DNA of 64,000 nucleotides, from contig JADFYJ010000001.1 in the NCBI GenBank assembly GCA_015233115.1, positions 195,084-259,083 of the forward strand, read 5' to 3'. Positions 1,300 through 60,157 of this stretch are shown piece after piece. A program made the position numbers and the translations under genes. The notes below the pieces were generated by a model, which saw only the letters and a list, made by a program, of their open reading frames with translations, searched no databases and was not told the DNA's origin. The stretch is from Candidatus Omnitrophota bacterium (GTDB taxonomy: Bacteria > Omnitrophota > Gorgyraeia > Zapsychrales > Zapsychraceae). How positions within the stretch are numbered: position 1 is the stretch's first letter; each line of letters begins with the position of its first letter.

Positions 1300-1707
1300 G
1301 TTGATCCTTTGTAAGACCATTGTCCCTCCGTAGAACAAAGTCAATATAAAGTGGAAAACGCCTATATTCAAAAAACTCTTTTTTTTCTATGATGGGAACA
1401 GTTCCGGTTTTGTCTGGGGGGGCAAACAACATCTACGCGGAGTTTTTTGATGTTTAAAATGTTTTTATTGCTCCCCAAAAACACATCAGCGCTCGACGGA
1501 AAATTTTTTCCGTTGATTGCTGTTTTTTTTTGCCGCGCACAAACATATATTTTAGAAATATTATTGTCAAAAGGAGGACATATAGAGCTCATGACTCAAA
1601 TAAAACATAAATTTGTTATGTTGTAAAAATGGGTTGATGCTGGTGAATATACCACCCCAGCGCCCTAATTCTAAAAATCAAATTAAATGGATAAAATGAG
1701 GTGCTAT

Positions 1708-4434
1708 ATGAGTAAAAAATTAACTTTTGTGTTTTCACTAGCAATTTTATTTGCTATGTACATTTCCGCCTTGCCGACGCCGGTTATGGCCGGAGGTGTT
1801 CCTTTATCTGATGGACAAATGGATCAAATTGCAGCAGGTGAATGGGTTTTGGCCTCTGCCGCTACTACCAAAAATTCATTAAAAGTTAAAGATCAGTCAC
1901 AAAATACGATTAAAGGTATCAGTAACGCAAACAGTGTGGATAGTGCTGTTAATGGACAGACCAACGTCAGTAATGCTGTCGAAGGAGCTGTAGATATTAC
2001 ACAAAGCAATAATACTTCGGTGACTAATCGTGCAAAGCCAAAAGATACTTTTAGTCTTGATGCCTCCCACAAAACAGTTACCGCCGTTAATGAGAAGGGC
2101 ACGACTACCTATAATAATGTGACCACTTCAAAAATCGATAATTCTAGTGCTGAAACTAAATCAGTTTCTGATACGGAATCGTTAAATACTTCTTCTACAG
2201 ATAAGGCGAGTTCTTCACTGAATGAAACTTCAAATAAAGCGGACAGCCTTAAGACTGGTTTTTCTGATGTTGAAGTCAGTGGTTCTTCAGCAAGCACTAA
2301 TTCTGCAAGTGCCAGCAATTTTTCAAAAGATAAAAGCGCAAGTTCAGCAGAAAATTTTGATTTAGATAAAGGTAAATCTGCTTCTAGCGAAGCTTCCCAA
2401 AGTGCTAATGATGCATCGAAAAATACCGCTAGTGCGAATAACAGCGCTTCGTCTTCTGATAAATTTAATTTAGACGGAAGTTTGAACGCAGGCACAACTA
2501 GCGCATCACAAAGTGCTTCGAAAAGTGCTGACAGTGTAGCAGCAATTTCCAGCAAATCTTCAAGTGATTCTGCTGCAGCCAATGAAAATGCCTCAACTTC
2601 GGATAAAGCAAATTTGGATGGTAGTTTAAGCGCCAGCGAAGGAAATGCTTCACAGAGTGCTGCTCAAAGTGCGAAAAGTCAATCAGCCAATTCCAGCAAC
2701 TCAGCTAGCAATAGTGCTGCAGCCAATGAAAATGCTTCATCTATGGATAAAGCTAATTTGGACGGCAGTTTGAGCGCTGGATCTGCAACGGCATCGCAGA
2801 GTGCTTCAAATAAATCAGACAGTGTAGCTGCTAATGCCAGCAAATCGTCTAGCGATACTGCTGCTGCAAACAACAATGCGACATCATCGGACAAAGCTAA
2901 TGTAGATGGAAGTTTGTCAGCATCGAAGTCAGCAGCCTCACAAAGCGCAGCGCAAAATGCGGATTCATCGGCATCGAACAATAGCGCAGCTGATTCATCT
3001 TCGAGCACAAAAGATGCCAGTCTGAACGTAGCAGCTACAGGAACAAGCAATAAAACTGCCTCATCTTCATCTGATGCTGTTTCCCAGGATGGTGTGAGCA
3101 CGTCTCAAAAGGATGCTAGCGCCAATCAATCCGCTGCACCTGGTTCAGTCACATCAGGGTCAACATCTTCAACAGCAGCCACAACTGGCAATGATGAAAA
3201 TTCGGGTACTGTTACTCAGAATTCTGCCACAGACACAGCCAATTCATCAAAAACGGTTGGTGTTAATGCCTCAGGCACACTTGACACGACTAAGCAATCA
3301 GGGTCGCAATCAGCTGATTCTGCAGCCGCAGATAGTTCTGCTTCAAATTCATCAGCAGCATCTAAAAATAGCAATCTTGATGCTTCATTAAGTGCAAGTA
3401 AAGACAAAGAAGCTTCTAGCGGAGCAGCATCATCATCCGCAAGTCAGGATGCAGCAAATGCTTCATTGACAAAAGATAAAACAGCGTCAGATTCAGCTTC
3501 AGCATCGGATAATAAGAATCTTGATGCTTCATTAAGTACAAGCAAAGATAAAGAAGCAACCAGCCAATCAGCTTCATCTTCAGCTGATCAATCTGCAGCT
3601 AATGCGGCATCGGCTAAAGATGCATCTGCTTCAAATTCAGCATCAGCATCTGAGAGTAAAAACCTAAATGCGACTTTAACCACGAGCAAAGATAAGGAAG
3701 CATCTAGCGCATCAGCATCATCTTCAGCTGATCAATCAGCAGCTAATGCCTCTTTAACTAAAGATAAATCTGCTTCAGATTCCGCGTCAGCTTCTGATTC
3801 GAAAAATTTGAATGCAGCGTTAACTGTTGGAAAAGATAAAGAAGCTGCTAACGCTTCAGCTTCTGCATCTGATCAAGAAGCATCTTCTGCAAGTCAATCG
3901 GCAGACAAAAGTGCTTCTCAAGATAGCTTATCTGTTACCAAAGGCAAAAGTGCAAACTCAGCTTTATCCGTAAAAGATACGAAGAGCGATAATTCTGCTT
4001 CTGCATCACAGGATAGCGCTTCAAAAAATGTTCAAGCAACGGTAGATGCTTCAAAAACTGATAATAAAGCGAAAACTGAAACATCAAGTTCAGAAAATGA
4101 CGCTTCTTTAGCAGCCTCGAAAACAACAACCAAAGCTGAAAATGAAACAAATACAAAAGTCAAAACTGATACTGTCGATCAAGGTGTGATCGTTGATTCA
4201 GCAAAAAATAATACGAATACTGAAGATGATTCAGTACAAATTGATGAGACTAAGACTGGTTCAGTGACCAATGAATTAGTTGTCTCAGGCGGTTCGCAGT
4301 CAGACATTATGGCAGTCAGCAACTTGAACGCAGTTGGTTCAGCTGTAGCCATACAAGCTAACGTTGCTAATTCCAGCACTGTATCTGGAAATATTTCACA
4401 ATCCAACGTGGCTACCGTAGCAAATGGTATTTAG
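1708..4434 (+). CDS. Exported Ser/Ala/Asp/Lys-rich repeat protein (putative fibre or surface-layer subunit). Its termini are paralogous to those of the 4517..5392 protein.
   Basis: ATG at 1708 preceded by GAGGTG; the ORF track start at 1687 is in frame. N-terminal hydrophobic signal-like segment, then LSDGQMDQIAAG. Interior made of two families of imperfect tandem repeats of about 48 and 40 aa. C-terminal N/V/S/Q-rich segment (AVSNLNAVGSAVAIQANVANSS...) aligns with the C-terminus of the next protein. Confidence 0.7.
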   Translation: MSKKLTFVFSLAILFAMYISALPTPVMAGGVPLSDGQMDQIAAGEWVLASAATTKNSLKVKDQSQNTIKGISNANSVDSAVNGQTNVSNAVEGAVDITQSNNTSVTNRAKPKDTFSLDASHKTVTAVNEKGTTTYNNVTTSKIDNSSAETKSVSDTESLNTSSTDKASSSLNETSNKADSLKTGFSDVEVSGSSASTNSASASNFSKDKSASSAENFDLDKGKSASSEASQSANDASKNTASANNSASSSDKFNLDGSLNAGTTSASQSASKSADSVAAISSKSSSDSAAANENASTSDKANLDGSLSASEGNASQSAAQSAKSQSANSSNSASNSAAANENASSMDKANLDGSLSAGSATASQSASNKSDSVAANASKSSSDTAAANNNATSSDKANVDGSLSASKSAASQSAAQNADSSASNNSAADSSSSTKDASLNVAATGTSNKTASSSSDAVSQDGVSTSQKDASANQSAAPGSVTSGSTSSTAATTGNDENSGTVTQNSATDTANSSKTVGVNASGTLDTTKQSGSQSADSAAADSSASNSSAASKNSNLDASLSASKDKEASSGAASSSASQDAANASLTKDKTASDSASASDNKNLDASLSTSKDKEATSQSASSSADQSAANAASAKDASASNSASASESKNLNATLTTSKDKEASSASASSSADQSAANASLTKDKSASDSASASDSKNLNAALTVGKDKEAANASASASDQEASSASQSADKSASQDSLSVTKGKSANSALSVKDTKSDNSASASQDSASKNVQATVDASKTDNKAKTETSSSENDASLAASKTTTKAENETNTKVKTDTVDQGVIVDSAKNNTNTEDDSVQIDETKTGSVTNELVVSGGSQSDIMAVSNLNAVGSAVAIQANVANSSTVSGNISQSNVATVANGI

Positions 4435-4516: not shown

Positions 4517-5392
4517 ATGTATCAAAAAAAAATTTCACCATTGGTTATTTTATGTTTAATTTTAGGGCAAAATTCTTTAGCATTTGCCAATTATGCGGTT
4601 GAGATTTCTGATTATGAACTTGATCAAGTTCATGCCGGAGGATTAAATCTTAACTTTGACAATTTTTTAGGTTCTATGAATACCGCGGCTGATACAGCTA
4701 GCAAAAGTTCTGTAGTTGATATCAACACAACGGCTAAGAATTCGTTAGTGACAAATTCAAACAATTCCGGAGTAACTATTTTAGCGCCGACTCAGCCTAA
4801 TTCTCCTACAGCGCCAACGGCGCCAACGGCTCCAACGGCTCCAGCTGCTCTAGTAGCGCCAACAGTTCCGACTTTGCCGACAGCGCCGGTTTTACCCATA
4901 ACTCCAACTAATCCAGCTTCTCCATTAGTTCCGACAGCTCCAATGCCGGTAGATCTAAGTCTTGCTTCAAATCCAAGCCTGGTGAGTGGATCGATAGCCG
5001 CACCTGAAGCACCATCGACTCCTGCGGTACCAGCCTTACCAGTATCGCCAGCTTCACCTGCAACACCAACGGCTCCTGCCACATCTGCCGCTGTTGCTAA
5101 TACACCTATGACATTTGATGTGGTGGCAAAAACAGGTAACAATTTTCAAGTGGCGTACTCAACAAATAGTAATGTTCAGCCAACTGCCTTTTCATCAACC
5201 GGGGGTATGAACTCAGTGAATGTTTCCGATACGGCGCAACAAAACTTAAGCGCTATGGTTAATGTTAACGCGGCAGGAAGTATTGTTCCTGTTCAAATTA
5301 ATTTAACTGTTCTCATGAATTCAACTGTGCAAAATCTTACCAATTCGAATGATTTGAAATTGAGTAATTACACGACGTTCTCCCTTCAGTAA
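4517..5392 (+). CDS. Exported Pro/Thr/Ala-rich repeat protein, a paralogue of the 1708..4434 protein (second subunit).
   Basis: AGGAGG RBS. Signal peptide with AFA cleavage-like site, then ISDYELDQVHAGG. PTAPTAPTAP low-complexity core. C-terminal N/V-rich segment (AMVNVNAAGSIVPVQINLT...) similar to the upstream protein. Confidence 0.7.
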   Translation: MYQKKISPLVILCLILGQNSLAFANYAVEISDYELDQVHAGGLNLNFDNFLGSMNTAADTASKSSVVDINTTAKNSLVTNSNNSGVTILAPTQPNSPTAPTAPTAPTAPAALVAPTVPTLPTAPVLPITPTNPASPLVPTAPMPVDLSLASNPSLVSGSIAAPEAPSTPAVPALPVSPASPATPTAPATSAAVANTPMTFDVVAKTGNNFQVAYSTNSNVQPTAFSSTGGMNSVNVSDTAQQNLSAMVNVNAAGSIVPVQINLTVLMNSTVQNLTNSNDLKLSNYTTFSLQ

Positions 5393-5429
5393 CGAACCTG
5401 TGGGGAAGGCAATATGATTTTTTATAGTT

Positions 5430-6119
5430 ATGAATAAAAAAGTTCTAACCACAATTTTGTTTTGTTTTCTTTCTTTAGTGTTCGCTAATTATTGTTTTGC
5501 GTCAGTTTTTTTCGTTGGAGGGATGCGATTTAATAAAAAGTTAATGCCGTTACGTGAAATTAAAAGAGAACACGTGGTTATGCAGAATTTTGATTTTAGC
5601 TGTGGAGCTGCGGGCTTGTCGACATTATTGAACTATTACCTTGGCAACCCAATCTCTGAAAGTGTCATTATTAAAACTCTTTTAAAGACTGTTCCGTTAC
5701 AAAAAATACGTCAACGGCGCGGGTTTTCCCTCTATGATTTAAAAAATTTCGCAAAATCAAAAGGATACATCGCGACAGGCTATAAAATGGATATTGATTT
5801 TTTAAAAAAACTTCATAAACCGGTTTTAGTTCCGATTAAATTTAGGAATTTCCGCCATTTTGTTATTATCAAAGCTGTAGTAGCTGATCATGTTCTTATA
5901 GCAGATCCAGCTGCCGGAAATACTTCAATGACGATAGATCAATTTAATAAACTTTGGATAGACGGCATATCTTTGCTCGTAGAAGATCCGCGAAAAAAAT
6001 CTAGTGGTTTTCAGACGAATTTCGACGGAAAAGATTTGTTAATAACAGATCACAAAATGATTGGACGGATTCTAAATCCTGACCTGATTCGCACAACAGT
6101 TTATCCGGGAGAATTTTAA
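5430..6119 (+). CDS. Standalone peptidase C39-like domain protein (papain-fold cysteine peptidase of the double-glycine-leader processing family) with an N-terminal signal/TM segment.
   Basis: The Cys motif FDFSCGAAGLSTLLNYY and the downstream HFVIIKAV...DPAAG (His/Asp) resemble C39 catalytic motifs. There are no ABC transporter domains. It is 229 aa. Confidence 0.6.
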   Translation: MNKKVLTTILFCFLSLVFANYCFASVFFVGGMRFNKKLMPLREIKREHVVMQNFDFSCGAAGLSTLLNYYLGNPISESVIIKTLLKTVPLQKIRQRRGFSLYDLKNFAKSKGYIATGYKMDIDFLKKLHKPVLVPIKFRNFRHFVIIKAVVADHVLIADPAAGNTSMTIDQFNKLWIDGISLLVEDPRKKSSGFQTNFDGKDLLITDHKMIGRILNPDLIRTTVYPGEF

Positions 6120-12495: not shown

Positions 12496-13860
12496 ATGAA
12501 AAAATTGATAACAATGTTTATTACTGCTTGTTGCATCTGTTGGCTTTGTAAAGGTACCACCGCTGATGAGCAAATCATGCATTATGCGGCTCCCACAATT
12601 TTGCCGCATGTTCGCCCGGAAATGCAAACAGCTGGTTTTTGGGTTAGCCGCAATCCTCATGCTGATGAAATTATTATTCCTGCCCGAATAATACCCGTTT
12701 TTAATAAAACCATTCAAGAAAATTTAAAGCTGACCCGCAATATGACTGAATTCCCATCTACGGTGTCAGGCGTTATTTATTTTGATAAACTGCAAAATAA
12801 ATTATCCAGCCTAAGAAATAATGGATATTTTACGAGTGAGGGTATTATCGCTGACCAAAAATTTTTTAATTTAATCGAAAATAATATGAATTTAAAATTG
12901 ATTGGAAAAATACTTCCTGTTAAATTTGGGTTTATTCTTTTTAACGCGGATCAGCGGCAATTACCAACCTTACAACATCTTTACGTCACAGCAGGCAACG
13001 TTGATTTTGATGAACTGCAAGAAAACGCTCTGGATGTTGGAACGCCAGTTGAGGTCATTCATCAAACCAAAGATGGAGAGTGGTATTATGTTCTTGGTCC
13101 TGCGAGTGAGGGCTGGATCAAGGCGGATCTTATAGGCTTATGCGAGCAATATGTATTTCAACAATACTTGAGCCATAAGCAGTTTTTAGTTGTTACCCGG
13201 GCTAAGATTGATATTTTTATCGATGATAAACTAACCCAATTTTATGGTTCCGCACGCATGGGTTCGCGTTTTTTCGTTAAAGATGACAGCGATCCAGAAA
13301 TCTTTCAAATTTATTTACCATCCCGTAAAAGGGAAGAATTTGAAATTTCAAAGGCCTATATTTCAAGACAAGGTGTTCATATTGGGTATTTAGACCATAC
13401 TGCTCGTCATGTGATCCAACAGGCTTTTGAAATGTTAAATACTCCTTATGGCTGGGGCGGCATGAACAACGAACAGGACTGCTCACAATTTATTCAAGAA
13501 ATTTACGCGACCATGGGCATTCAATTGCCACGGAATTCGTCCGATCAAGCCCAAATTGGCAAAGAATTAGCCGCATTTACCGATGAAACAAAAGATTCCA
13601 AAAAATTAGATGTCATTTTACACAGCGCTTCACCTGGAAATAGCATGTTTTATATGAAAGGTCATATTATTTTATTTTTGGGTGTTGTCGATGATGTGCC
13701 TTTTGCCATCCATGATATTTGGGCCTACCGCGAACGGATTGGAAGAGAAGATGTCGCGCGCGTGTTAAACCGGGTAGCGGTGACAGATCTTTCTTTGGGA
13801 ACTGGGTCGAGAAAAGGCTCATTACTAAGCCGTATTTTGCAAATTCGTATGATCCAATAA
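12496..13860 (+). CDS. NlpC/P60 family peptidoglycan hydrolase with an SH3-like domain.
   Basis: C-terminal NTPYGWGGMNNEQDCSQFIQEIY (Cys) and GHIILFLG (His) match NlpC/P60. There is a central SH3b-like segment. Start taken at the ATG at 12496 (MKKLITM..., signal-like). Confidence 0.75.
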   Translation: MKKLITMFITACCICWLCKGTTADEQIMHYAAPTILPHVRPEMQTAGFWVSRNPHADEIIIPARIIPVFNKTIQENLKLTRNMTEFPSTVSGVIYFDKLQNKLSSLRNNGYFTSEGIIADQKFFNLIENNMNLKLIGKILPVKFGFILFNADQRQLPTLQHLYVTAGNVDFDELQENALDVGTPVEVIHQTKDGEWYYVLGPASEGWIKADLIGLCEQYVFQQYLSHKQFLVVTRAKIDIFIDDKLTQFYGSARMGSRFFVKDDSDPEIFQIYLPSRKREEFEISKAYISRQGVHIGYLDHTARHVIQQAFEMLNTPYGWGGMNNEQDCSQFIQEIYATMGIQLPRNSSDQAQIGKELAAFTDETKDSKKLDVILHSASPGNSMFYMKGHIILFLGVVDDVPFAIHDIWAYRERIGREDVARVLNRVAVTDLSLGTGSRKGSLLSRILQIRMIQ

Positions 13861-38468: not shown

Positions 38469-38664
38469 TCCTATATCTTTAGGGCCCCGAAGGATATATT
38501 TTAAGCCGAATTTCTGACCTTCAAGGAAGCGGGAGATACCAGCAGGGGGGTGAATCTCATGTAACATGAGAGGGATAGCTGCCATCCTAACCCATCAACT
38601 AATCTCGCAGGCTAGGCAGTATTTTTTTATTAGTTCAAGCTTTAAATATTTTTTGTGGGGGATA

Positions 38665-39438
38665 ATGAGTCATTTAATTGCTTTAATATTGGGTATGGTG
38701 GAAGGAATTACTGAATTTCTACCAATTTCTTCTACTGGGCATTTGATTCTTACCTCAAAATTACTTCACCTTGCTGATTCCGAATTTTTAAAAAGTTTTG
38801 AAATTATTATTCAATTAGGTGCTATTTTATCTGTTGTAGTTCTATATTGGAAATCTTTTTTTACAAACCTCGCTACTGTCAAACGCATTGCAGTTGCTTT
38901 TTTGCCGACCGCAGTTATTGGTTTCATATTTTACAAGCTCATTAAAAAATTTTTATTAAGCAATAGTGACATTGTTATTTGGTCCTTGTTGCTGGGTGGC
39001 ATATTTCTGATCATATTTGAAATGCTTCATAAGGAAAATACGGATTCTTCGCAGGGAATACTGGCCATTTCTTATAAACAAGCATTTTTTATAGGCATAT
39101 TTCAATCCTTCGCTATGATACCCGGCGTTTCCCGTTCTGCTGCCACAATCATTGGAGGGATGTTTTTGGGTATAAGCCGTAAGACTATCGTTGAGTTTTC
39201 CTTTTTATTAGCTGTACCAACTATGGGAGCCGCAGTAGGGTTAGATCTTATAAAAAATTCGCCTAGCTTCGCTGCTGAACAATTTGGATTTTTAGCTACC
39301 GGATTCATTGTTTCGTTTATTGTCGCGCTCGCGGCTATAAAATTTTTGTTATCTTATATCCAAAAAAATAATTTTATTCCTTTTGGTTTTTACCGCATTA
39401 TTGTAGCCATCATATTTATCACTTTCTTCCGATTTTAA
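38665..39438 (+). CDS. uppP: Undecaprenyl-diphosphatase.
   Basis: The N-terminal motif GMVEGITEFLPISSTGHLIL is the BacA/UppP signature, with a second motif PGVSRSAATI. Start at the ATG at 38665; the ORF-track start is upstream in non-coding sequence. Confidence 0.9.
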   Translation: MSHLIALILGMVEGITEFLPISSTGHLILTSKLLHLADSEFLKSFEIIIQLGAILSVVVLYWKSFFTNLATVKRIAVAFLPTAVIGFIFYKLIKKFLLSNSDIVIWSLLLGGIFLIIFEMLHKENTDSSQGILAISYKQAFFIGIFQSFAMIPGVSRSAATIIGGMFLGISRKTIVEFSFLLAVPTMGAAVGLDLIKNSPSFAAEQFGFLATGFIVSFIVALAAIKFLLSYIQKNNFIPFGFYRIIVAIIFITFFRF

Positions 39439-49865: not shown

Positions 49866-51560
49866 ATGAAAAAATTAGCCCTAAGTATGCTGCTTCTTTT
49901 TATTCCAGCCATGTCAAAGGCAGCGATATATGACTTGGAACCAATAAAAATTTATAGTTTGAACAATAACGGCCAAGATGCAGCTAATACTCAAAACATC
50001 CCCAACAGCTCATCTGGCGTAGATATCCAAACCCGGGTTGATGAAGGCATTCTCCAGGATATTTCAATCCGGGGCGGCACTTTTGAAGACGCGGATGTAC
50101 GGATGAACGGTGTCAATTTAGACAATCCGCAGACTGGCCACTTCAACTTGGCTTTGCCGATAGTATCGACAGATATTATCAATAGTAAAGTTGACCTTAA
50201 CGGCCAATATATTGATTACAATCTCAAAATGCCCCAAAAAAATGAGGCCATGGTTCGGGTTTCTGCCGGAAATGGCGGATACGCGGATACATTGATATCA
50301 GCTTCTTTTGGAAAAAATAATACTTTCAACCGTTTCTCGTATGAAGGTATGCGTACTGACGGACTTTTACCCCAAACTGATGCCGATAAAAATGCGGTTT
50401 CCTATACTTTTTTTCATGACGCGGATTTTATGACTTCGAAAATTTATGCTTCATATCTAAATAAAAATTATGGAGCAGGCGGCGCGTACGGCGCTCCCTG
50501 GTATATGGCAGAAGAAGAGCATCTTGAGCAGCATTATTTAATGAGCCAGCTGACATTTAAACAAAATTTAGATCTTGAACTCACGCCATATATTTACCGG
50601 ACTGATGATACATTTTTTTTGAACCGTGATGATCGTACTCATAATCGCAATGACCACACCATGTATGTTTATGGAAATAATGCTAAATCTTTTTTTCTTG
50701 ATCGCTTATTTTATGGCGAATTAGATGTGCGGGAAGAAAGTATTGATTCAACGAATTTACTGGAACATAACCGGTTGGTATATGAAATGGGTTTGGGCCA
50801 GGAAGAAAAACAATTTGGAAAATTCGGTTACAACTTTTACGGTGGGTTATTATCATTAGACGGATATCCTTATAAATTTACACCCAAAGCCGGCATATTC
50901 TATGATGTGGCTCAAGGCTGGCGCGTCACTTTAGACGCGGCTAGAAAATATCGTCAACCATCATTTACAGAGCTATATTATTATTCTCCATCAAGTCATG
51001 GCAACAATACTTTAGTGCCCCAGCAATCGTCTAATTATGAATTAGGATTGACACGTAAATCTTCCGGATGGTTGTGGCGGGTTAACGGCTTTTATCGGCA
51101 TCAGGAAAATACAATTGATTGGGTAAAAAATAATAGCGATACTTTTTATCGCGCTATTAATGCCGGTCAATTAGAGGCCAGAGGATTTGATCTTAAATGG
51201 CAATACGACGCAAATTGGAAATTTTTAAAACGAATATCAGCAGAATATACCGGATTATTTCTCAATAAACAAAATAATTGGGATATGTCAAAATACGCGT
51301 TCGAATATTTGCAGGACCGTCTGGTATGTAAATTCGAACAATCAATAGGAAAATGGGACTTTGATGTGTCATATATTTATGAAGACCATATTAGTCAAAA
51401 AGGGCGCTCGCTGGTTAATGGCGGGGTGGTTTATAAAATGGCGCCGCGTAAGAGTATATTTTTAAGAGTGGATAATCTTTTTGATTTTGATTATTATGAA
51501 TTGCCGTATATAAGAGGAACCCCGGTTTCGGTTAAGGGGGGAATGGAGATAAAATTTTGA
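49866..51560 (+). CDS. TonB-dependent outer-membrane receptor (short, BtuB-sized).
   Basis: Signal peptide. Plug-domain motifs (DISIRGGTFEDADVRMNGVNLDNPQTGHFNL). C-terminal ...GGMEIKF with terminal Phe. GAGGAG RBS. Confidence 0.65.
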   Translation: MKKLALSMLLLFIPAMSKAAIYDLEPIKIYSLNNNGQDAANTQNIPNSSSGVDIQTRVDEGILQDISIRGGTFEDADVRMNGVNLDNPQTGHFNLALPIVSTDIINSKVDLNGQYIDYNLKMPQKNEAMVRVSAGNGGYADTLISASFGKNNTFNRFSYEGMRTDGLLPQTDADKNAVSYTFFHDADFMTSKIYASYLNKNYGAGGAYGAPWYMAEEEHLEQHYLMSQLTFKQNLDLELTPYIYRTDDTFFLNRDDRTHNRNDHTMYVYGNNAKSFFLDRLFYGELDVREESIDSTNLLEHNRLVYEMGLGQEEKQFGKFGYNFYGGLLSLDGYPYKFTPKAGIFYDVAQGWRVTLDAARKYRQPSFTELYYYSPSSHGNNTLVPQQSSNYELGLTRKSSGWLWRVNGFYRHQENTIDWVKNNSDTFYRAINAGQLEARGFDLKWQYDANWKFLKRISAEYTGLFLNKQNNWDMSKYAFEYLQDRLVCKFEQSIGKWDFDVSYIYEDHISQKGRSLVNGGVVYKMAPRKSIFLRVDNLFDFDYYELPYIRGTPVSVKGGMEIKF

Positions 51561-51608
51561 AATTGTGACAATGTAACAATGTGGCATTGAAAAATCGATT
51601 ATTGTAAA

Positions 51609-51705
51609 GCGCGCGGATTGGGCGGTTAGCATTTAAACCGAATCCTTCGCTCAAACAACCTTGGCGAAGCGCCAAGGAAACTCGCTCGGGGATTCAGTTT
51701 AAAAG
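51609..51705 (+). repeat. Roughly 95-nt structured repeat, copy 1. Conserved TCCTTCGCTCAAACA - GAAG hairpin - AACTCGCTCGGGGA with compensatory stems.
   Basis: Aligns with 58465..58555. The inner stem CCTTGGCG/CGCCAAGG and outer stem GAATCC/GGATTC differ in sequence from copy 2 but keep their pairing. Confidence 0.5.
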
Positions 51706-51775
51706 TTAACCTTGTGTTTGGGCACGCGGTTTTCTATTTTTTACATTGTCATTGTTCCTCTGTCAGGATAAAAAA

Positions 51776-52156
51776 ATGGTCATTGAAAAAATTCGGGTTG
51801 ATAAATGGTTGTGGGCCGTACGGATTTTTAAGACACGATCGCTGGCTTCTGAAATGTGCGAGAGAGAAAAGGTTTGGATTGAAGGTCAGCACGTGAAGCC
51901 GTCCCGGGAAGTGAAAGTTGGTCAAAAAATTAAAGTCCGCAAAGATAATATTGATTGGGAATATGAAATTTTAAAATGTATAGATAAAAGAGTGAGCGCG
52001 ACTGTTGCCAATGAATGCAGAAAAGACATTACGCCGCCGGAAATCATTGAACGCGCTAAATTGATTCGCAGTATGTGGGTGCCGAGGCGCGAACCAGGAG
52101 AAGGCCGGCCAACTAAAAAAGAACGCAGAGATTTAGATAAATTCATGGATTATTAA
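51776..52156 (+). CDS. hslR: Ribosome-associated heat shock protein Hsp15 (S4 domain).
   Basis: IRVDKWLWAVRIFKTRSLASEMCE matches the Hsp15 S4 motif RLDKWLWAARFFKTR. Confidence 0.8.
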   Translation: MVIEKIRVDKWLWAVRIFKTRSLASEMCEREKVWIEGQHVKPSREVKVGQKIKVRKDNIDWEYEILKCIDKRVSATVANECRKDITPPEIIERAKLIRSMWVPRREPGEGRPTKKERRDLDKFMDY

Positions 52157-55447: not shown

Positions 55448-56842
55448 ATGAAACCAAAAATCACAATTAAAACCATACCTGCCGACCGATTCACGCCGCT
55501 GGTGGTATTTAAAAAATTAGCGGGAAAAGCTCTGCTGGAATCAGCCGTTCTAGAAATCGGGAAGAGCCGTTATTCCATTATTCTGGTTGAAGAAGCTTTC
55601 CGCCTAATTTTAGATAAAAACGGTGTTCATTGCCTTGAAAACGGTAAAAAGCGCGCCATCACCCGCGACCGTAAAAAATTTCTCGAACTCGTCGAAGAGG
55701 CAGGGAAAAAAGTGCGGACCCAGGAAAATTTTTCCATTCCAATCCCCGCGGCTGGCTTAGGCTACCTGGGCTATGAAACGGCCATGCTGTTTGATAAAAT
55801 CAATCTGGCAAAACAGCAGGATGAATTAAATCTACCGGACAGCATTTTTATGTTTGGTTCCATTTTTGCCATATTTGATCACTATAAATCCGAATTACAT
55901 CTGGTGGCCATTGATCAGCAAGGCTCGGTTAATGCTAAAAACAAATTGGAGGGATTGGCTTTAAGATTGTTGGATGATGATTTCCGCGCCTATAAATCGA
56001 ACGATGCGCATTTTGAATATTCAGCAGATATCGAAGCTGGTAAACAACAATTTATTTCCGGCGTCAAAACTATAAGGGATCATATCATTGCCGGCAATTT
56101 AGTGCAGGCGGTCTTATCCCGTAGAGTTGACGTTAAAACACATTTACCCGCCATTGAAGCTTACAGCCGGTTACGCCGAGAAAATCCTTCTCCATATTTA
56201 TTCTATTTGGATTTTGATGATTTTCAATTATTAGGCGCGTCGCCTGAACTCATGGTTTCTTTATCCGGAGATATTGCCACTATTAAACCTATTGCCGGAA
56301 CCAGACGCAGAGGCAAAGACCGCGCTGAAGATGTAGCTTTAGAGAAAGAATTGCTCGCCGATGAAAAAGAACGAGCTGAACATTTAATGCTGGTTGATTT
56401 GGCCCGCAATGATTTAGGGCGAGCGGCCGCATCAGGAAAAGTGACACCTGTCCATCTTTATGGCGTTGAACGTTATGCTCATGTTATGCACATTGTATCG
56501 GAAATAGAAGCGCCGTTACGTAAAGATCAAACGGCGTGCGATCTGATCAAAGCGACTTTTCCTGCCGGTACAGTATCCGGAGCGCCTAAAATCATGGCCA
56601 TGCAGATTGTTTCACAAATTGAAAAAACCAAACGCGGACCATACGCGGGATTAATTGGACATTTTGACGTCAATGGCAATTTCGAATCATGTATCACGAT
56701 CCGTTCATACATTCATAAAAATGACCATTATTATATTCAGGCAGGGGCAGGAATTGTTTATGATTCTGTGCCGGAAAAAGAATTCGAAGAAACAGTTTAT
56801 AAATCCAAAGCGCTGATCAAAGCCTTGGGAGTAAAAATATGA
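55448..56842 (+). CDS. trpE: Anthranilate synthase component I.
   Basis: [13 protein letters not shown] and [27 protein letters not shown] chorismate-binding motifs. About 464 aa. Confidence 0.9.
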
Positions 56843-58431
56843 TTCTCATGATTGATAATTATGATTCATTTACCTATAACGTGGTCCAGCTGATCAGTAA
56901 ATTGGGTTATACAGTAAAAACTGTGCGTAACGACGAGATCACAATTAAAGAAATTGAAAAATTAAAGCCTTCGCATATTGTAATATCTCCCGGGCCAGGT
57001 TATCCCAAAGACGCGGGGATCAGTCTTAAAGTCATTAAATATTTTGCTGGAAAAATTCCGATTCTTGGCGTTTGCTTAGGGCATCAATGTATTATTGAAG
57101 CGTTTGGCGGCAAAATTATTTCTGCCGGTAAAATCGTGCACGGCAAAACCTCCAAAATCATTCATGACAGCAAAGGTCTTTTTCGCAATATTCCTCAGAG
57201 TCTGGATGTAGTCCGGTATCATTCTCTGGCCGGTGATCCTGAAGCTATGCCTGAATGCCTGGAAACCACAGCCCAGACAGAAGACGGCACTATCATGGGC
57301 GTGCGGCATAAAGATTACCAAATTGTGGGTGTACAATTTCATCCAGAATCAATCGGCACTCAAAAAGGTGAAGAGATAATGAAAAACTTTTTTCATTATC
57401 GCAGTGAAGAAGCGCAAGCTGTTAAATTGATTACAAAGGTTTCCCGCGACGAAAATCTGGATGCCAAAGAGAGTTATCACATGATGGATGAAATCACTTC
57501 CGGTGAATTAGCAGATAGTCAGCTCGGAACATTTTTAGGCGCATTGGCTGTCAAAGGCATTACTCCGGTAGAACTCAGTAGTTTTGTGCAATTGTTGCGT
57601 GACAAAGCCGGAGTGAAAACTTCGATCAGGGGTGCCTTAGATACATGCGGGACTGGCGGTGACGGAAAACACACGTTTAACATCTCAACTGCTGCGGCAT
57701 TATTATGCGCGTTTTCCGGCATCAAAGTTGCTAAACACGGTAACCGCGCTATCAGCTCTAAGTCCGGCAGTTTTGATTTTTTAAATAGTTTAGGAATCAA
57801 TACCCAAGGCGACATTGTTGAAAACATTAAATCCCTGAATAAAAATAATTTCGCGTTCTTTTTCGCGCCGAATTATCATTCTGCCATGAAGTATGTGGCT
57901 AAAGTCCGGCAGGAAATAAAGATCCGCACAGTTTTTAACATGATCGGCCCTTTGGCAAATCCGCTGGCATTAGATTATCAACTCGTCGGTATTTTTGATC
58001 CAAAATTGCTTGATCTGTTTGCTGAGTCTATGAAACGACTTGGCAGGAAACACGCGATGGTGGTTCACTCCACTGACGGCTTAGATGAAATCAGCATATC
58101 CGCAAAAACATTAGTGAAAGAATTAATGCGTGATGGCACAATCATTTCTTATGAAATAAACCCGGCTGATTTTGGCATCAAAAATTATAAATTGTCCGAC
58201 ATAGAAGGCGCTTCAGCTAATGACAATGTGGAATTATTTTATAAAATTATTTCCGGCAAAAAACTTACGCATAAAGAAACTGCCGTGAAAATCGCCATAG
58301 CCTTAAATGCCGGAGCAGCGATGTATATTTGTGAGTTAAGTCCAACGATTAAAGATGGGTATAAATTAGCGCTTAAAAAAATTGAAGATAAAAAATTTAT
58401 TTTATATTTGAATCATTTAAAAAATTCTTAA
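56839..58431 (+). CDS. trpGD: Bifunctional anthranilate synthase component II (glutamine amidotransferase) / anthranilate phosphoribosyltransferase.
   Basis: N-terminal class I GATase (GVCLGHQ). C-terminal TrpD motifs (DTCGTGGDGKHTFNISTAAA, KHGNRAISSKSGS). 4-nt overlap with trpE. Confidence 0.9.
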   Translation: MILMIDNYDSFTYNVVQLISKLGYTVKTVRNDEITIKEIEKLKPSHIVISPGPGYPKDAGISLKVIKYFAGKIPILGVCLGHQCIIEAFGGKIISAGKIVHGKTSKIIHDSKGLFRNIPQSLDVVRYHSLAGDPEAMPECLETTAQTEDGTIMGVRHKDYQIVGVQFHPESIGTQKGEEIMKNFFHYRSEEAQAVKLITKVSRDENLDAKESYHMMDEITSGELADSQLGTFLGALAVKGITPVELSSFVQLLRDKAGVKTSIRGALDTCGTGGDGKHTFNISTAAALLCAFSGIKVAKHGNRAISSKSGSFDFLNSLGINTQGDIVENIKSLNKNNFAFFFAPNYHSAMKYVAKVRQEIKIRTVFNMIGPLANPLALDYQLVGIFDPKLLDLFAESMKRLGRKHAMVVHSTDGLDEISISAKTLVKELMRDGTIISYEINPADFGIKNYKLSDIEGASANDNVELFYKIISGKKLTHKETAVKIAIALNAGAAMYICELSPTIKDGYKLALKKIEDKKFILYLNHLKNS

Positions 58432-58464: not shown

Positions 58465-58555
58465 GAGCGCAACGGGCGACGTTTCAACCAAGTCCTTCGC
58501 TCAAACAGCTGAGCCGAAGCGGCTCAGAACTCGCTCTGGGACTCGGTTTCCACTC
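58465..58555 (+). repeat. Roughly 95-nt structured repeat, copy 2 (see 51609..51705), in the trpGD-trpB intergenic region.
   Basis: GAGCGCAACGGGCGACGTTTCAACCAAGTCCTTCGCTCAAACAGCTGAGCCGAAGCGGCTCAGAACTCGCTCTGGGACTCGGTTT. Confidence 0.5.
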
Positions 58556-58634
58556 TGCCCTGAGCAAATTGAATGCGCTTGGGACCGGCATGCTGTATGT
58601 TTAAAATAATTATTTCTATTTTAAAGGTTAATAA

Positions 58635-59843
58635 ATGTCAAAATATTTCGGACAATTTGGCGGTCAATATACTGGCGAAGTTTTAAAACCAGCTTTAGCT
58701 GAGCTTGAAGCCGCGTTTTTAAATATTTTGCCGACCGAAGAGTTTCAGAAAGAATATCATATTTTACTGCGTGATTACGTCGGACGTCCTACGCCGCTAT
58801 ATTTCGCGGAACGGACCACCAAAGACTTGAATGGCGCAAAAGTTTATATCAAATTAGAAGGACTGGCCAATACTGGCGCGCATAAGATTAACAATGCTTT
58901 AGGGCAAGTTTTATTAGCCCAAAAAATGGGAAAGACCCGGGTCATTGCGGAAACCGGAGCAGGACAACATGGTGTGGCCACAGCCGCAGCCGCAGCCAAA
59001 CTTGGACTGGCCTGCGAAGTATTCATGGGAGAAGTTGATGTTGCCCGCCAACAGCCAAATGTTTTTTTAATGAAACAATACGGTGCGAAAGTGACGCCGG
59101 TTTCTGATGGTACACGCACGCTTAAAGACGCGGTCAACCGCACCTTAAAAGAATGGGCAGGTTGTTCCTCGGACACATTATACATTTTGGGTTCAGCTTT
59201 AGGCCCTTATCCCTATCCGGATATGGTCCGCACATTTCAGCAAATTATTGGTCAGGAAATCCGCCAATCAATTTTAGAAAGGGAAGGGCGTTTACCCGAT
59301 ATGCTGATTGCCTGTTGCGGCGGAGGTTCTAATTCTATCGGCACATTTACGCCATTTATAAATGACACAGTTTCTCTTGTCGCGGTAGAGGCAGGCGGAA
59401 AGGGAAAACATTTAGGCGATCACGCGGTTCGCATGAATGGTAACGGCCATCTAGGAATTATTGAAGGCTACAAATCATTTTTTATACAAAATGGCGAAGG
59501 ACAAGTTTTACCGACCCATTCTATTTCAGCTGGTTTAGATTACGCTGGCATCGGACCAGAATTAGCCTTTTTAGGAGAGAAGGGCAGAATTAAATTCGAA
59601 AGCGCGACTGACACGGAAGTTTTAAACGCGTACCAATATTTTGCCCAAAAAGAAGGTTTATTATTCGCCATGGAATCTGCTCATGCCGCGGCCTATGCTT
59701 TGCGAATAGTTCCCAAATTGACCAAAGAAGCTATCGTCTGCATCACCATGTCTGGACGAGGCGATAAAGATATTTTTATTACGGCGAAAGAATTGTATAA
59801 AGCAGAATGGATTAAATTCTTAAAAAATGAATGTGAAAAATAA
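58635..59843 (+). CDS. trpB: Tryptophan synthase beta chain.
   Basis: GGQYTGE...RPTPLY...HKINNALGQ...GAGQHG PLP-fold signatures. Confidence 0.92.
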   Translation: MSKYFGQFGGQYTGEVLKPALAELEAAFLNILPTEEFQKEYHILLRDYVGRPTPLYFAERTTKDLNGAKVYIKLEGLANTGAHKINNALGQVLLAQKMGKTRVIAETGAGQHGVATAAAAAKLGLACEVFMGEVDVARQQPNVFLMKQYGAKVTPVSDGTRTLKDAVNRTLKEWAGCSSDTLYILGSALGPYPYPDMVRTFQQIIGQEIRQSILEREGRLPDMLIACCGGGSNSIGTFTPFINDTVSLVAVEAGGKGKHLGDHAVRMNGNGHLGIIEGYKSFFIQNGEGQVLPTHSISAGLDYAGIGPELAFLGEKGRIKFESATDTEVLNAYQYFAQKEGLLFAMESAHAAAYALRIVPKLTKEAIVCITMSGRGDKDIFITAKELYKAEWIKFLKNECEK

Positions 59844-59864
59844 AATGTGATAAAAGATGCTGTT

Positions 59865-59993
59865 GTAGGGGCGATCTCCTGATCGCCCGCACTATAAAAG
59901 ATTTATAAATTATCATTTCGGTTTTTTTTGTTTGTATTTTTGAAATAAAAAAGCGAATATTTTGTAAACGGGCGATCAGGAGATCGCCCCTAC
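59865..59993 (+). repeat. Long inverted repeat, GTAGGGGCGATCTCCTGATCGCCCG ... CGGGCGATCAGGAGATCGCCCCTAC, flanking an A/T-rich 79-bp core.
   Basis: 25-bp arms that are exact reverse complements. Each arm is also internally palindromic (GGCGATC-TCCT-GATCGCC). Confidence 0.7.
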
Positions 59994-60140
59994 GACCAAG
60001 GACGCAATGTCCGCGTAGTGCTGGAAGCTCCTGCGAGCAGTGCGACCAAGGACGCAATGTCCGCGTAGTGCTGGAAGCTCCTGCGAGCAGTGCGACCAAG
60101 GACGCAATGTCCGCGTAGTGCTGAAGCTCCTGCGAATGGC
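59994..60140 (+). repeat. 50-bp direct tandem repeat, about 2.9 copies (GACCAAGGACGCAATGTCCGCGTAGTGCTGGAAGCTCCTGCGAGCAGTGC).
   Basis: Units at 59994-60043 and 60044-60093 are identical. The third unit is degenerate, with a 1-nt deletion and a diverged end. Confidence 0.8.
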
Positions 60141-60157
60141 ACAAAAATATATTAAAA

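Follow-up and report, generated by a model that had tools for sequence, protein, structure and literature searches.

Here, we describe a family of intergenic palindromes whose centre is conserved while the surrounding stems are free to change. We put at about one half the probability of our preferred reading, in which each element is a small, mobile but non-autonomous DNA palindrome with its conserved asymmetric core as a recognition module. Two copies lie in the window, by which we mean the whole 64-kb stretch of Omnitrophota DNA analysed here, and the known sample comprises about 10 copies from three lineages. The names attached to TrpGD and its relatives place the source of the window among Candidatus Omnitrophota MAGs. 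The family is absent from Rfam, and a literature search with the exact core strings returned unrelated primer matches only. If this reading is right, the elements form a new family of insertion palindromes in which an asymmetric centre is conserved rather than the termini, which is common to Omnitrophota and Gammaproteobacteria and whose arms can be made from host flanks. It would point to a novel mobilisation mechanism and enzyme. Furthermore, apparent compensatory base changes would then arise without selection at the RNA level, which matters for the discovery of non-coding RNAs by covariation, and the family would offer a small natural system for the study of palindrome formation and inverted triplication.

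Two insertions in compact gene strings

Copy 1 folds into an imperfect hairpin at 51609-51727, closed by an outer stem that runs from GCGCGC (51609-51614) to GCACGC (51722-51727). Inside it a 22-nt inverted repeat (51624-51645 and 51690-51711, 86%) encloses the plus-strand core block TTCGCTCAAACA at 51646-51657, which reads TGTTTGAGCGAA on the minus strand and is the same in all intact copies, then a variable apical hairpin, CCTTGGCG-AAG-CGCCAAGG, at 51658-51678, and a second plus-strand core block, AACTCGCTC, at 51679-51687 (GAGCGAGTT on the minus strand). Copy 2 is built alike. Its imperfect hairpin spans 58466-58579, with an outer stem from AGCGCA (58466-58471) to TGCGCT (58574-58579), and contains the plus-strand blocks TTCGCTCAAACA at 58496-58507 and AACTCGCTC at 58528-58536 on either side of the apical hairpin CTGAGCCG-AAG-CGGCTCAG at 58508-58527. 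The inner stems are CCTTGGCG/CGCCAAGG in copy 1 versus CTGAGCCG/CGGCTCAG in copy 2, and the outer stems GAATCC/GGATTC versus AGTCC/GGACT; all of them pair. The 15-mer TCCTTCGCTCAAACA occurs exactly twice in the window (51643-51657 and 58493-58507), as does AACTCGCTC(G/T)GGGA (51679-51692 and 58528-58541), and every other match in the window to either string has at least 3 mismatches. For an exact 15-mer to recur within 64 kb is far beyond chance. A covariance model run over the whole window with filters off returned nothing beyond copies 1 and 2.

A preliminary description of this DNA had reported two homologous copies with identical core blocks and compensated inner and outer stems, one upstream of hslR-tatD and one between trpGD and trpB. 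The sequence bears out the copies and their stems as described, and NCBIfam assignments confirm the flanking genes. The repeats of about 95 nt that it delimited are real; however, they are the apices of longer hairpins, since the outer stems close structures of 114-119 nt. It had also allowed that the element might be merely the end of a longer dispersed repeat. This is partly the case, in that the element is the centre of a longer palindromic insertion. Around copy 1, weaker outer arms (TGACAATGTAACAA at 51566-51579 pairing with TTTTTACATTGTCA at 51738-51751; 14 nt, 93%) extend the palindrome to 51566-51751, about 186 nt or nearly the whole spacer, and their pairing score was reached by 0 of 2000 shuffles. 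A 10-mer, TTTCTATTTT, recurs in the right flanks of both copies (51731-51740 and 58610-58619), 36 nt and 15 nt upstream of the start codons of hslR and trpB, respectively. Possibly this 10-mer marks a degenerate right end of the insert, in which case the inserted unit would measure roughly 176-190 nt.

The window contains other repeats. Arrays of 8-nt-periodic units (GTCACAAG / GACACAAA) form inverted pairs around 60-200 nt of AT-rich intergenic DNA at 33717-33759/33953-33989, 49234-49295/49397-49421 and 62975-63010/63113-63151, and constitute a second family of palindromes between genes, which are either similar to MITEs or arrays of operators. The outer arms of copy 1 (51563-51590 and 51744-51760) consist of degenerate units of this type. 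Within genes, coding repeats with a 144-nt period (2422-3863) lie in a 915-aa ORF at 1687-4434 and repeats with a 9-nt period (CGCCAACGG-like, 4785-5088) in the next ORF, 4517-5392; both ORFs are repetitive, surface-protein-like genes.

Both copies are co-oriented and stand within co-directional gene strings. Copy 1 follows a gene for a TonB-dependent receptor (49866-51560) and precedes Hsp15/hslR (51776-52156) and tatD, while copy 2 lies after trpE and trpGD (56839-58431) and before trpB (58635-59843) and trpA. In relatives these junctions are compact. The trpGD/trpB gap measures -4 to 25 nt in the relatives L004, L012, L013 and L014 versus 203 nt in the window. In L004, the closest relative examined (TrpGD 79% identical, same gene order), the two genes overlap by 4 nt; in three further Omnitrophota relatives the gaps are -4, -4 and 25 nt, and one more has trpC/F inserted between trpGD and trpB. 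L004 is also the sole relative that keeps the junction of TonB receptor and hslR, with a gap of 21 nt versus 215 nt in the window. Since the relatives' junctions are compact, the spacers of 215 and 203 nt in the window are derived. In about 86 kb of sequence from Omnitrophota relatives, the covariance model R1, for which four copies were used, found no copy.

The flanks of copy 1 may carry a trace of the event. A decayed direct duplicate of the hslR start, AACAATGTGGCATTGAAAAA, lies on the plus strand at 51575-51594 and matches AAAAATGGTCATTGAAAAA at 51772-51790 with a score that was reached in 1 of 2000 shuffles; on this comparison it resembles a target-site duplication. At copy 2 no duplication of the flanks reached significance in the shuffle test. 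Judged against the outgroup, the insertion separated an overlapping trpGD and trpB and spared both genes, which we infer would require duplication of the junction. The case also shows that a translationally coupled, overlapping pair of genes can take up such an insertion with both reading frames kept.

Homologues in other lineages and arms made from host DNA

The layout of the family, read on the minus strand of the window, is an arm, 1-2 nt, GAGCGAGTT, a hairpin of 16-21 nt, TGTTTGAGCGAA and the complementary arm. The variable arms measure 10 to more than 40 bp, and the apical hairpin is GC-rich and variable as well. The bipartite core of 21 nt is invariant between an Omnitrophota genome of about 38% GC and Gammaproteobacteria of about 65-70% GC with all of its surroundings replaced, a conservation that is partly ascertained, as the first homologues were found with a pattern that requires the core. 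The sequence GCGAAGC, described as a 'mini-hairpin' DNA motif (PMC13037366), occurs in copy 1 and, almost intact, in copy 2. It is missing from the other lineages, and we rejected it as a feature of the family.

A metagenome scan for the two core blocks 14-34 nt apart yielded two contigs with genuine elements, L005 and L006. Although they have no sequence in common with those of the window copies, their stems and apical hairpins pair. The L005 contig (306 kb, about 68% GC) comes from an uncultured gammaproteobacterium, judged by the names of the relatives of its XerC, and carries two inverted copies about 130 nt apart. A search of one genome per GTDB species with the pattern CTTCGCTCAAACAN{14,34}AACTCGCTC gave 3 matches that lack the hairpin and are due to chance, and a looser 19-base pattern run on viral contigs gave 5 matches, all of them chance and three from the same phage sequence. 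Further homologues came from the xerC-DUF971 spacer. This spacer holds two copies in L016 (XerC 88% identical) and one copy, at a contig end, in L019 (XerC 90%), and it is empty, with a length of 49 nt, in L017 and L018 (XerC 85%). The second L016 copy (L016B) and the L019 copy were found by synteny and the covariance model and not by the exact pattern, and their core is identical. In the first L016 copy (L016A, L016 3902-3976) the core is interrupted by a nested 18-nt palindrome; because this core is disrupted, individual copies are dispensable and able to decay. A third lineage is represented by L020, from the same organism as L006, with an element in the divergent hutU/tauE spacer. Directly beside it (L020 6763-6799) we observed a perfect 15-bp palindrome, TTGCTGTATACTGTA ... 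TACAGTATACAGCAA; palindromes seem to cluster in the same permissive spacers.

Presence and absence among close relatives was thus seen in two lineages. The elements have inserted into short spacers next to the ends of genes, their orientation to the host genes is mixed, and the neighbouring genes (hslR, trpB, DUF971/xerC and tauE/hutU) are functionally unrelated across loci. The xerC beside the gammaproteobacterial copies belongs to the housekeeping DUF484-xerC pair. Copy number appears low: the 64-kb window has 2 copies, and 21 kb of L022 also contain 2, R1 with filters off finding nothing there beyond the xerC site.

We have analysed stem covariation in an alignment of 7 copies from the three lineages, extracted by hand and 55 columns wide, which contains 12 bp of the arm, the core and 5 bp of the apical stem. 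With the stem registers chosen by us, standard pairs fill 93.5% of the cells versus 64.5% after column shuffles and 22-44% with slid partners, and of the 17 variable pairs, 16 have changed on both sides. This covariation fits either strand, and a DNA palindrome, equally well.

The origin of the arms bears on this question. In L005 the palindrome of the copy next to xerC runs outward for about 90 nt on each side. The distal arm of this copy (5367-5406) repeats the 3' end of xerC (5546-5585), namely the last ~35 nt of coding sequence and the stop region, in inverted form at 85%. The distal arm of the other copy (5399-5427) is a 90% inverted copy of the 5' end of DUF971 (5190-5218). L016 follows the same host-arm pattern, with 3821-3862 pairing with 4013-4054 at 86%. 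The source in xerC encodes the conserved C-terminus ...AAHPRAK and is unchanged at the empty site; hence the xerC segment in the arm is host sequence and not part of the element. In a three-way alignment the junction of xerC end and DUF971 start is present three times, in direct-inverted-direct order, and at this gammaproteobacterial locus each inversion junction carries one core, the two cores being oppositely oriented. Such an arrangement is producible only at the DNA level, e.g. by fold-back priming, template switching or hairpin-templated repair. Because host-derived arms, which have been shown for the Gammaproteobacteria only, need a DNA-level process, at least part of the compensated pairing arises without selection on RNA structure.

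In copy 1 of the window, the outer stem region GCGCGCGGATTGGGCGG (51609-51625) has a 10-mer, GCGCGCGGAT, in common with the reverse complement of the gammaproteobacterial xerC 3' end. Its counterparts lie at L005 5565-5585 and L016 4037-4054, where the xerC sequence sits in the arms. With a rough p of about 0.01, the shared 10-mer may reflect chance in GC-rich sequence or a relic of horizontal transfer.

Inverted-duplication junctions are a known artefact of multiple displacement amplification (MDA) and of metagenome assembly, and fold-back chimeras or chance similarity could account for such a locus. The same architecture recurs with diverged sequence in independent JGI, ENA and NCBI assemblies, and this recurrence effectively refutes an artefact. 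In addition, two copies lie within one 269-kb MAG contig, and exact repeats of a 15-mer and a 14-mer are not expected by chance. We give this explanation next to no weight.

A comparison of L005 and L016 further shows apices that seem exchanged, as the apex of L016B matches L005b and its arms match L005a. To judge by this pattern of matches, the exchange suggests recombination or conversion within the cores of inverted copies. It is what one would expect of an attC-like or other folded single-strand site of an integron-like or Xer-like tyrosine recombinase, where conserved unpaired bases give strand and polarity and the terminal structure is variable. The architecture, with a paired outer box, a conserved unpaired centre and a variable apex, fits as well, and the gammaproteobacterial copies lie directly downstream of xerC. 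However, this xerC is a housekeeping gene that is equally present at the empty sites of L017 and L018. Reading the sequences directly revealed no RYYYAAC/GTTRRRY boxes at the base of the hairpin, and there is no cassette array and no intI at the element loci, nor was a recombinase found among the window ORFs scanned. We consider such a site very unlikely.

Strand asymmetry and the choice between RNA and DNA

The core is not symmetric with respect to the strands. Folded as RNA, the minus strand is better than the plus strand by 2.7-14 kcal/mol in all 8 of 8 copies, and only on the minus strand can the core form a near-continuous helix, from C-G, G.U, A-U and G.U pairs and tandem G.A. The covariance model scores 72-77 bits on the minus strand versus 12-14 bits on the plus strand. 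These features would suit a structured non-coding RNA on the minus strand that has spread horizontally, for example a new self-cleaving ribozyme, a small RNA or a motif bound by protein. Its function would then reside in the invariant internal loop, with no demand on the two flanking helices other than pairing; small ribozymes and protein-binding RNA motifs are typically laid out in this way, with an invariant asymmetric core between two freely covarying helices. However, the strand asymmetry stems wholly from positions that never vary and covariation cannot test it, while the G.U wobbles in the variable arms are symmetric between the strands (10 versus 12). Calculated with DNA energy parameters, the folds of the two strands are about equal in strength. 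No promoter-like site was found on the minus strand with either window copy, and the mixed orientation to host transcription would make expression haphazard. Moreover, the arms include duplicated host coding sequence and one ortholog has a disrupted core.

Rfam 15 gave no match to the element, neither over the window at the gathering score nor around both copies on both strands up to E = 10. In the permissive search the flanks of copy 2 gave two chance snoRNA matches off the element, and on L005 and L006 there was only a spurious match to a miRNA hairpin (29 bits versus a gathering score of 97). The window's only Rfam match is a c-di-AMP (ydaO/yuaA) riboswitch on the plus strand at 38494-38628 (69 bits; gathering score 38), and a BacA/UppP-family ORF (38566-39438) follows directly downstream of it. 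Known self-cleaving ribozymes (hammerhead, twister, twister-sister, pistol, hatchet, HDV-like and hairpin) were rejected, as there were no Rfam matches to them, and to our knowledge the core matches none of their consensus sequences. On reading the sequences, we set aside a k-turn, as the tandem G.A lacks a 3-nt bulge, and likewise domain V of group II introns. ARAGORN found no tRNA-like structure, and this candidate was rejected. Taken together, we regard a minus-strand RNA as an unlikely explanation.

A scan of the minus strand for the terminator consensus flagged copy 1, with its TTGTTTG tail, and left copy 2 unflagged. On the minus strand, and there alone, the apical hairpin and the TTGTTTG behind it have a weak resemblance to a terminator, which the sense strand lacks; the window copies are oriented such that the operon mRNA is without the hairpin-plus-UGUUUG feature. 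One may ask whether the element is a cis-acting operon module for hslR-tatD and trpB, such as a riboregulator, a processing site, an mRNA stabiliser or a polar terminator or insulator. The terminator-like feature and the common orientation of the two window copies within co-directional gene strings would speak for it, and REP, ERIC and similar palindromic repeats are known to change the stability of mRNAs into which they have inserted. Against this, relatives with the same operons are without the element, and the homologues stand by xerC/DUF971 and hutU/tauE, genes of unrelated function, in both orientations. An effect on the operon would be a by-product of insertion and would leave the conservation of the core across phyla unexplained. 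A cis-regulatory RNA in the strict sense, i.e. a riboswitch or leader with fixed position and orientation upstream of one gene class, was rejected, because no such fixed arrangement is seen. A role as an operon module thus appears rather improbable.

These results bear on the functions that the preliminary description had proposed. It had taken stems that change while pairing is kept as the signature of selection on RNA structure. The changes do mark a repeat family, but, given the host-derived arms and the symmetry of the G.U pairs, they do not by themselves show selection on RNA structure. A riboregulator of hslR or trpB is not supported, given the empty sites in relatives and homologues beside unrelated genes in both orientations. 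Of its three guesses the REP-like module comes closest, although the GTAG head and the whole-length conservation of REPs are missing.

A mobile DNA palindrome is the reading we prefer, and its mechanism can be sketched as follows. The element would be copied or inserted as a folded single strand, or via fold-back DNA synthesis that is hairpin-primed or involves template switching. Such a fold-back process would build and repair the arms from whatever adjoins the core. The asymmetric core, non-palindromic inside a self-correcting palindrome, would then be the recognition or cleavage module of a putative trans-acting enzyme. The orientation of the window copies might let trp and hslR transcription read through, as the mRNA strand is without the hairpin-plus-UGUUUG. 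Near the copies we found no gene for a transposase, recombinase, HUH nuclease or reverse transcriptase, and Pfam searches of 30 further window ORFs revealed no mobilising enzyme. More speculatively, the family could represent a new cross-phylum class of hairpin-mobilised elements, in which a core of ~50 nt, GAGCGAGTT - hairpin - TGTTTGAGCGAA, is recognised as single-stranded DNA or is a catalytic RNA, and in which palindromes seeded by fold-back copying of the flanks give rise to direct-inverted-direct triplications. We hold this extended version to be a doubtful, if possible, one.

Comparison with known systems

REP and REPIN sequences, which are associated with RAYT/TnpA-REP, are similar in several respects. 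They are intergenic, hairpin-forming and dispersed, vary in presence between strains and often occur as inverted doublets, and they are thought to act as folded single-stranded DNA, for which the inverted pairs in L005 and L016 may be compared. However, REPs measure 20-40 nt and have a GTAG head at the 5' end; within a species their conservation extends over the full length, and they are not known to be shared between phyla. Our element is conserved in the centre with free stems, measures 114-119 nt and has no GTAG in or beside the core. Identity with REP/REPIN was rejected on the missing GTAG and on stems that differ between copies of one genome. No RAYT (Y1 HUH) was present among the scanned window ORFs or at the examined homologue loci.

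Two further observations concern trpB-trpA spacers. In the window this spacer holds a GTAG-headed, REPIN-like 28-nt inverted doublet, GTTGTAGGGGCGATCTCCTGATCGCCCG (59862-59889 and 59969-59996), which is found nowhere else in the window and is followed by three tandem 50-nt repeats at 59993-60142; the corresponding spacers of relatives have a different sequence. The spacer of L004 (~12895-12960) contains the hairpin GATAATTC-GAGCGGGCACGG-CTCGTAC..GTACGAG-AGCGA-GAATTATC, whose apical stem is flanked by GAGCG on either side, with two further GAGCG motifs nearby. It was rejected as a copy of the family, as it gets no model score and folds no better than shuffles.

Several short motifs were compared on reading the sequences. 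We take the lambda/rrn boxA-boxB system not to apply, since CGCUCAAACA resembles the nutR boxA CGCUCUUACA without what we understand to be its essential U run. A sigma-54 promoter in the 3' flank was likewise set aside, as its presumed -12 GC is missing or mis-spaced, and the XerCD dif site is presumably not represented either. The likeness to ERIC we consider superficial, as it consists of TGAATCCCC..GAGC only, in the variable arm of one copy.

Like rho-independent terminators, the element has on its minus strand a GC-rich hairpin with TGTTTG behind it. The U-tract, however, is short and broken up, a far longer helix surrounds the hairpin, and a terminator role would not account for the GAGCGA repeats that are conserved to its left and right. 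Integron attC sites are also imperfect palindromes (57-141 nt) that work as a folded single strand, with extrahelical bases that set polarity and a variable terminus. Unlike attC, the element has no R''/R' consensus boxes, cassette array or integron integrase, and it lies between housekeeping genes.

MITEs and long palindromic repeats such as ERIC/IRU, Correia/NEMIS, RUP and BOX come to 100-200 nt, form long imperfect hairpins, insert into operon spacers, are co-transcribed and are flanked by target duplications. Empty sites and a target-site duplication are what marks a MITE insertion, and here we found empty sites in relatives and a direct repeat of ~20 nt at copy 1. However, in MITEs the terminal inverted repeats, the ends bound by transposase, are conserved and the middle varies, and the element is the reverse: conservation is central and the outer arms are site-specific or host-derived, so that a MITE with conserved termini was rejected. 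No parent IS matching the element was found. Unlike MITEs, the element is common to Omnitrophota and Gammaproteobacteria, and its arms can be host-derived.

Origin-dependent inverted-repeat amplification (ODIRA) and bacterial tandem inversion duplications offer a parallel to the gammaproteobacterial locus, since they have the same direct-inverted-direct structure and a hairpin-forming sequence at each inversion junction. Inverted triplications of the ODIRA type form at short inverted repeats (PMC4689423). However, ODIRA events are sporadic, use arbitrary short inverted repeats and span kilobases, while the unit described here is shorter than 100 nt and carries the same core at both junctions.
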